A stretch of DNA of 64,000 nucleotides, from the NCBI RefSeq assembly GCF_055900595.2, contig NZ_CM148325.1; one strand, 5' to 3'. The notes under the pieces were generated by a model that did not search any database, was not told where the DNA came from, and worked only from the letters and a program-made list of their open reading frames with translations. This document shows, piece by piece, positions 59,752 through 59,883 of the stretch; position 1 is the stretch's first letter, and each line of letters starts with the position of its first letter. A program made the translations under genes and the position numbers.

Positions 59752-59883
59752 TTAACCACATTATTAGTAACAATGATAATCTGGCTGTATCGAAAATAAT
59801 TCTAAACTTTCAGGAGATTTATTATGAATAAACGTATCCTCACGATTGCGTCATTCTTCTTACCGATATTCTGACACACATCA

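Follow-up and report, generated by a model that had tools for sequence, protein, structure and literature searches.

Start signals of a lost oxidoreductase gene as the probable origin of a 16-codon reading frame between two LysR-family genes in Escherichia coli

Described systems and the setting of the ORF

Gene remnants, in the form of pseudogene fragments, are a familiar object in E. coli accessory loci, and the short open reading frame (ORF) described here, which lies between two genes for LysR-family regulators in a stretch of 64,000 nucleotides (the window), is an unannotated case of such a remnant. As with other remnants, its position is orthologous to that of the parent gene, the flanking synteny is conserved, the upstream sequence and the start codon are still those of the parent, and the locus has undergone several independent deletions across strains. 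It is unusual only in that essentially the expression signals alone survive, fused to foreign sequence: unlike other remnants, it keeps 5 nt of parental coding sequence and no more. Since only these 5 nt of the parent, an oxidoreductase gene referred to below as the SDR gene, are left, pseudogene callers that are based on protein homology cannot detect the relic.

A second group of comparable systems comprises the divergent promoters shared by LysR-type regulators and their targets, where dyads of the T-N11-A type are expected as the binding sites of the regulator. The region upstream of the ORF resembles these in being the retained divergent promoter of a LysR-type regulator (LysR1), and in related species the same region, with the dyad CCCTTCA-N11-TGAAGGG, precedes an oxidoreductase gene. 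Here, by contrast, the target gene is gone, the candidate dyad has 5-nt arms with N10 and the promoter region carries a 7-nt deletion. Among very short E. coli products, PheL is a hydrophobic, Phe-rich leader peptide of 15 aa and IlvX a protein of 16 aa. The ORF is similar to both in length, in its strong Shine-Dalgarno sequence (SD) and in its Phe/Leu/Ile-rich sequence, but differs in having no downstream attenuator, no operon to control, a convergent neighbour as the next gene and a frame that is not kept across lineages. Finally, like de novo small ORFs (proto-genes), it is lineage-specific and came about when 2 nt were inserted and 18 nt deleted behind pre-existing expression signals, although the evidence so far makes it no more than raw material for one.

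The ORF had been recorded in a sequence-only reading of the window, with CAGGAG lying 7 nt upstream of the ATG, and direct reading of the sequence (...tttCAGGAGatttattATGAATAAACGTATCCTCACGATTGCGTCATTCTTCTTACCGATATTCTGA) confirmed this exactly. The features of the immediate surroundings are:

59824-59874, plus strand: 16-codon ORF with 16 sense codons and the product MNKRILTIASFFLPIF; start codon ATG at 59824-59826, stop codon TGA at 59872-59874
59811-59816, plus strand: SD-like CAGGAG, with a spacer of 7 nt to the ATG
58789-59682, minus strand: LysR1, a LysR-family regulator with HTH_1 and LysR_substrate domains
59884-60810, minus strand: LysR2, a LysR-family regulator with HTH_1 and LysR_substrate domains
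56891-57742 and 57769-58758 (block 56891..58758), plus strand: two aldo/keto reductase (AKR) genes, the other half of the LysR1 module

The ORF sits within the 201-bp gap that separates the two LysR-family genes. It is divergent from LysR1, with its start 141 nt from the LysR1 start codon, and convergent with LysR2, with its end 9 nt short of the LysR2 stop codon. PGAP calls no feature at this position in any genome listed, and a full-text literature search with the peptide string matched no papers.

The surrounding gene order is fdeC – aldo/keto reductase (283 aa) – aldo/keto reductase (329 aa) – LysR1 – ORF – LysR2 – alpha/beta hydrolase – NADH-dependent flavin oxidoreductase – ykgR – ykgM – ykgO. 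The region is an E. coli accessory locus: the 1-kb stretch around the ORF is 100% identical to several E. coli chromosomes and was found in about 2,200 of the 5,426 complete E. coli genomes, while about 3,200 of the 5,426 are without the region altogether.

The gene paired with LysR1 and its start site

When LysR1 was searched at one genome per species, 80 loci were obtained. At 30 of these (29 intact or nearly so, one frameshifted) an ORF lies opposite LysR1, with its start 148 nt from the LysR1 start. The paired ORF encodes 152-265 aa (mostly 254-265) with the N-terminus MKILVAGATGSIG, and its product is an NAD(P)H-binding, NmrA-like atypical SDR (Pfam NAD_binding_10 at 3e-34, plus NmrA), which PGAP names "SDR family oxidoreductase". 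The genera with this arrangement include Citrobacter, Klebsiella, Raoultella, Kluyvera, Buttiauxella, Pantoea, Erwinia, Tatumella and Serratia, and it is also present in Escherichia whittamii. Together with LysR1 and the two aldo/keto reductases, the SDR gene forms a four-gene unit with 85-98% amino-acid identity across many Enterobacterales genera.

In the alignment of the divergent intergenic region, the SD and ATG of the window share columns with the SD and ATG of the SDR gene (other species, ...TATCAGAAGGTTTATCATGAAAATACTCGTT...; window, ...TTTCAGGAGATTTATTATGAATAAACGTATC...), the CAGGAG of the window being aligned to the CAGAAGG that precedes the SDR gene in the other species. The distances to LysR1 agree as well, because the 141 nt between the LysR1 start and the ATG of the ORF become 148 nt once a 7-nt deletion (TGATATT) in the window-type promoter region is counted, which is the orthologous position to the SDR start. 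BLAST places the end of the similarity at the same point: E. coli matches to the E. whittamii locus L010 end 2-4 nt past the ATG of the SDR gene, and matches of the E. whittamii loci L010 and L054 to the window end at 59828, i.e. after ATGAA. By both the alignment and the BLAST end-points, the homologous stretch takes in the SD and the start codon of the SDR gene. The resulting features of the region are:

59683..59828, no strand assigned: divergent LysR1/SDR intergenic region that has been kept, together with the initial 5 nt of the SDR gene, the rest of which is lost, from the alignment and the BLAST end-points
59709..59728, no strand assigned: degraded dyad CTTCA-N10-TGAAG with 5-nt arms, from the alignment
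59773..59800, plus strand: promoter-like hexamers ATGATA-16-AATAAT pointing at the ORF, from consensus match only

Since the SD and ATG columns are orthologous to the SDR start and the homology ends at 59828, the good SD and ATG are inherited from a real gene that was lost at this locus, namely the one for the NAD(P)H-binding oxidoreductase with which LysR1 is usually paired divergently, and the breakpoint lies at 59828/59829. Locus L054, the syntenic ykg locus of E. whittamii, runs collinear with window positions 54811-59828. About 33 SDR codons are left in it, and it represents an independent intermediate state of SDR loss. An intact SDR gene is present at a second chromosomal locus in 275 E. 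coli genomes, where it adjoins a truncated LysR paralogue and a fimbrial operon (e.g. at about 2.53 Mb in E. coli strain 3-72, positions 4415-5927 of locus L089, encoding 260 aa), and E. whittamii L010 likewise has an intact copy at a second locus. As the SDR gene is intact there in some strains, the parent gene of the relic still exists elsewhere.

The promoter region itself has changed in the window-type sequence. An inverted-repeat search found the dyad CCCTTCA-N11-TGAAGGG in the intergenic region of SDR-bearing species, with arms of 7-8 nt in L010, L012 and L089; it is of the T-N11-A type and a candidate binding site for LysR1. The same search of the window at seed 6 returned no dyad. Compared with the ancestral type, the window type has a stronger SD (GGAG instead of GAAGG) and a better -10-like hexamer (AATAAT instead of AATAAG). 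A G-run at 59728-59735, about 46-52 nt upstream of the LysR1 start and 3' of or beside the candidate dyad, varies in length between strains, reading GGGGGGAG in the window and 5-6 G then directly G in other strains.

The AKR283-AKR329-LysR1-SDR module (56891-59682 in the window; loci L012-L053) was also seen in Morganella and others, as well as in assemblies labelled Chryseobacterium and Collinsella. This distribution points to a recent horizontal spread of the module and to contamination as the source of the Chryseobacterium and Collinsella occurrences.

Junction DNA and allele classes

Downstream of the breakpoint the sequence has a different character. The corresponding feature is:

59829..59883, no strand assigned: junction DNA from the relic start to the LysR2 stop, hypervariable from one Escherichia allele to another, including indels of 2 nt and 18/19 nt

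Only Escherichia loci contain this junction sequence. Local alignment of the junction against three SDR genes and their 3' flanks on either strand, judged against shuffles, revealed no significant similarity: among 18 comparisons the lowest p was about 0.045 and most were above 0.2, with none significant after correction for multiple comparisons. Since local alignments past ATGAA are no better than shuffles and no residual SDR homology is seen there, an origin of the ORF body from decayed SDR sequence was rejected. LysR2, the alpha/beta hydrolase and the OYE-type flavin oxidoreductase constitute a module separate from that of LysR1. The ORF body is junction DNA between two regulons that were brought together, and the 14 codons that follow the first two come from this unrelated sequence, the reading frame being accidental.

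Two further origins of the ORF body were considered and rejected. The first, that it is the native 3' flank of LysR2, was examined with a LysR2 homologue on a Klebsiella variicola plasmid, the only one found outside Escherichia; the flank of this copy has no similarity to the ORF body, and the homology begins about 22 nt inside LysR2. The second, that the ORF is the remnant of a signal peptide, had been suggested by the ...LFLLPIFAQS of an alternative allele, but the frame of that allele merely runs on antisense into LysR2, and no homologous gene for a secreted protein lies at the ORF position in any species examined. The K. variicola module is located on an IncF plasmid (L096 2985-6508, corresponding to 59884-63274 of the window) with about 75% nucleotide identity; it adjoins a Tn3-family transposase and a recombinase gene, and has an additional SDR gene between the hydrolase and the oxidoreductase.

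The start of the ORF differs between Escherichia lineages as follows:

Window-type allele (about 1,710 genomes, matched without gaps over 77 nt at 95% identity or more): ORF of 16 codons
Alternative E. coli allele (roughly 490 genomes, among them CFSAN061770, O17_K12a, PK8275 and O157:H7): ATG TAA
Escherichia sp. E1V33: GTG, in a different frame
Species representative L011: TTAGAG, without a start codon

In the alternative E. coli allele the SD is also weaker (CAGAAAG), and 18 nt are inserted farther downstream. Compared with SDR-bearing outgroups, the window-type ORF shows two derived changes, a 2-nt insertion just past ATGAA and an 18/19-nt deletion that creates the TGA, and it is because of these two changes that the 16-codon ORF exists. 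Its length is intact in every window-type genome sampled, whereas neither frame nor length is conserved in the alternative allele, in E1V33 or in L011. Conservation of the frame across strains, which had been proposed as a check of the ORF together with its absence as a refutation, is thus lacking between allele classes. In strain AF3 an IS1 is located inside the ORF, at codon 4-5.

Through both LysR genes the window and the alternative allele are 97-100% identical, but the identity falls to 71% across 59782-59871, which makes the ORF region the least conserved stretch of the locus in this comparison. The hot spot of divergence between the two alleles extends over 59689-59963, with identities of 87%, 71% and 86% in three consecutive bins of about 100 nt, and strain GF66 is a mosaic of the window-type and alternative alleles. 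The pattern suggests that allele replacement by recombination (intergenic switching) or local hypermutability may have acted here, rather than simple drift.

Readings of the ORF and decay of the locus

Taken together, the ORF is very probably the orphaned translation-initiation region of a lost LysR1 target gene, and it is almost certainly not a gene. Ancestrally, LysR1 would have been divergently paired with the gene for the NAD(P)H-binding (NmrA-like, atypical SDR) oxidoreductase of about 260 aa. At the ykg locus of E. coli, the body of this gene was presumably removed or replaced as the LysR2-hydrolase-flavin oxidoreductase module became its neighbour, a change that would have left the divergent intergenic region, the SD and ATGAA intact. 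The surviving ATG would then open into unrelated junction DNA, giving 16 mostly hydrophobic codons followed by TGA. The peptide is hydrophobic because the junction sequence is T-rich, its Phe/Leu/Ile-rich composition being a consequence of this. The orphaned start site may still be transcribed, possibly under the control of LysR1, and translated, in which case the peptide would be a by-product without selected function. Nothing indicates selection on the peptide.

One alternative is that the ORF marks a regulatory element, such that LysR2 is modulated by antisense transcription or translation that enters its 3' end from the orphaned LysR1-dependent promoter, or that it encodes a leader peptide. 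The promoter-like hexamers face the ORF, which is convergent with LysR2 and ends 9 nt from its stop, and a search around the ORF and between the ORF and LysR2 found no terminator-like site. However, the classical logic of a leader peptide has no target here, since no co-directional gene lies downstream and the next gene, LysR2, is on the opposite strand. There is also no attenuator-type structure: the RNA fold of 59790-59890 has z = 0.08 on the plus strand, and the z = -1.74 of the minus strand is unremarkable and comes without a U-tract, while a scan of 59300-60300 against Rfam at a permissive E-value returned only two chance-level matches to eukaryotic snoRNAs (E ~4). Moreover, the candidate LysR1 dyad is degraded in the window allele, the arrangement is not the same in all alleles, and some ORF-bearing strains have LysR2 deleted. 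A regulatory role is therefore very unlikely, and the leader peptide that the sequence-only reading had offered as one option is not borne out, given the absence of a gene to control and of a terminator or attenuator structure and the loss of the frame across alleles.

In another alternative, the major E. coli allele (about 1,700 complete genomes) would have put the orphaned LysR1-controlled promoter and ribosome-binding site to a new use, with the branch-specific changes of the SD, the -10-like hexamer and the 2-nt insertion reflecting selection for expression. Expression would yield either a newly arisen hydrophobic peptide of 16 aa or an antisense transcript that depends on LysR1, reaches into LysR2 and couples two regulons of the detoxification type. 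The SD and -10-like hexamer, being stronger and better than the ancestral ones, would also fit selection for expression, and if co-option were true the locus would offer a datable birth of a gene from the expression signals of a deleted one; we nevertheless regard it as very unlikely.

Closely related is the proposal of a young, lineage-specific small protein (a proto-gene) built on the promoter, SD and ATG left behind, i.e. a LysR1-controlled hydrophobic peptide of 16 aa with some membrane-associated function. It draws on the intact ORF in the roughly 1,710 genomes of one allele class, on the stronger SD and -10-like hexamer derived on this branch, and on the 2-nt insertion, which sets the ATG in frame with the hydrophobic run. 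Yet the ORF-intact genomes are close relatives, so that intactness may merely reflect recent common descent, and every other Escherichia lineage lacks the frame or has it broken. The variable sites within the class, too few for a formal test of selection, lean away from constraint: three of the four in the sampled window-type alleles are nonsynonymous (I5T, A9V and S10P, with P at position 10 in most strains) and one is synonymous (I5). The hydrophobic run ILTIASFFLPIF comprises 12 residues and the peptide has Pro at position 14, in most strains also at position 10, and the run falls short of the about 18-20 residues of a bilayer-spanning segment and is too short for a normal transmembrane helix. 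A proto-gene is thus highly improbable, and the small membrane peptide that had been suggested from the sequence is not supported either, given the short hydrophobic run and the frame that is broken or different in other Escherichia alleles.

A chance ORF behind a chance SD, without evolutionary history, can be dismissed as extremely improbable, because although 64 kb of simulated sequence should contain the bare pattern about 4.65 times, the SD and ATG align to a conserved gene start in many species and the homology ends right after ATGAA. The expectation comes from first-order Markov simulations of the window, in which AGGAG followed after 4-9 nt by an ATG and an ORF of 10-50 codons was counted on both strands (4.65 +/- 2.3 per 64 kb); in the window itself the pattern was observed once, at the ORF. 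As a bare pattern, SD, ATG and short ORF are not beyond chance, and what raises the SD and ATG above it is not the pattern but their homology to a genuine gene start in other species. The earlier suggestion that the ORF might equally be chance thus holds for the body of the ORF, which is accidental, but not for the SD and ATG, which are inherited from the start of the deleted oxidoreductase gene.

For the discovery of small ORFs, an orphaned start region of this kind is a reason for caution: an intergenic SD-ATG pair of textbook quality may be non-random and yet be no gene, but the start of a deleted one. If such relic promoters still fire, convincing initiation peaks in ribosome profiling would result. 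Ribosome profiling has been published for the B2 strain LF82. Leftover expression signals could also feed new small ORFs, although no sign of such a gene birth was seen at the ORF locus.

The locus as a whole is decaying by several independent routes in different strains. In O157:H7 SS52 (L008) LysR1 and most of the AKR genes are missing, in KKo009 and GPEC1210 (L091/L092) LysR2 and the hydrolase, and in L011 everything from LysR2 through the oxidoreductase; AF3 (L094) combines the IS1 insertion with a deletion at the locus. In the interval between the hydrolase and the flavin oxidoreductase, a segment of 79 nt (about 62015-62093) is present in the window and absent from LF82, and a hairpin, CAGGGAGAT...ATCTCCCTG (about 61896-61918), lies 3' of the hydrolase stop. 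The alpha/beta hydrolase of strain Z0117EC0005 (L001 7668-8588, corresponding to 60967-61887 of the window) is flagged by PGAP as a pseudogene with an internal stop. The 1-kb query showed no difference between this strain and the window (100% identity), yet in the window the ORF listing gives the hydrolase frame as uninterrupted, with 306 codons.
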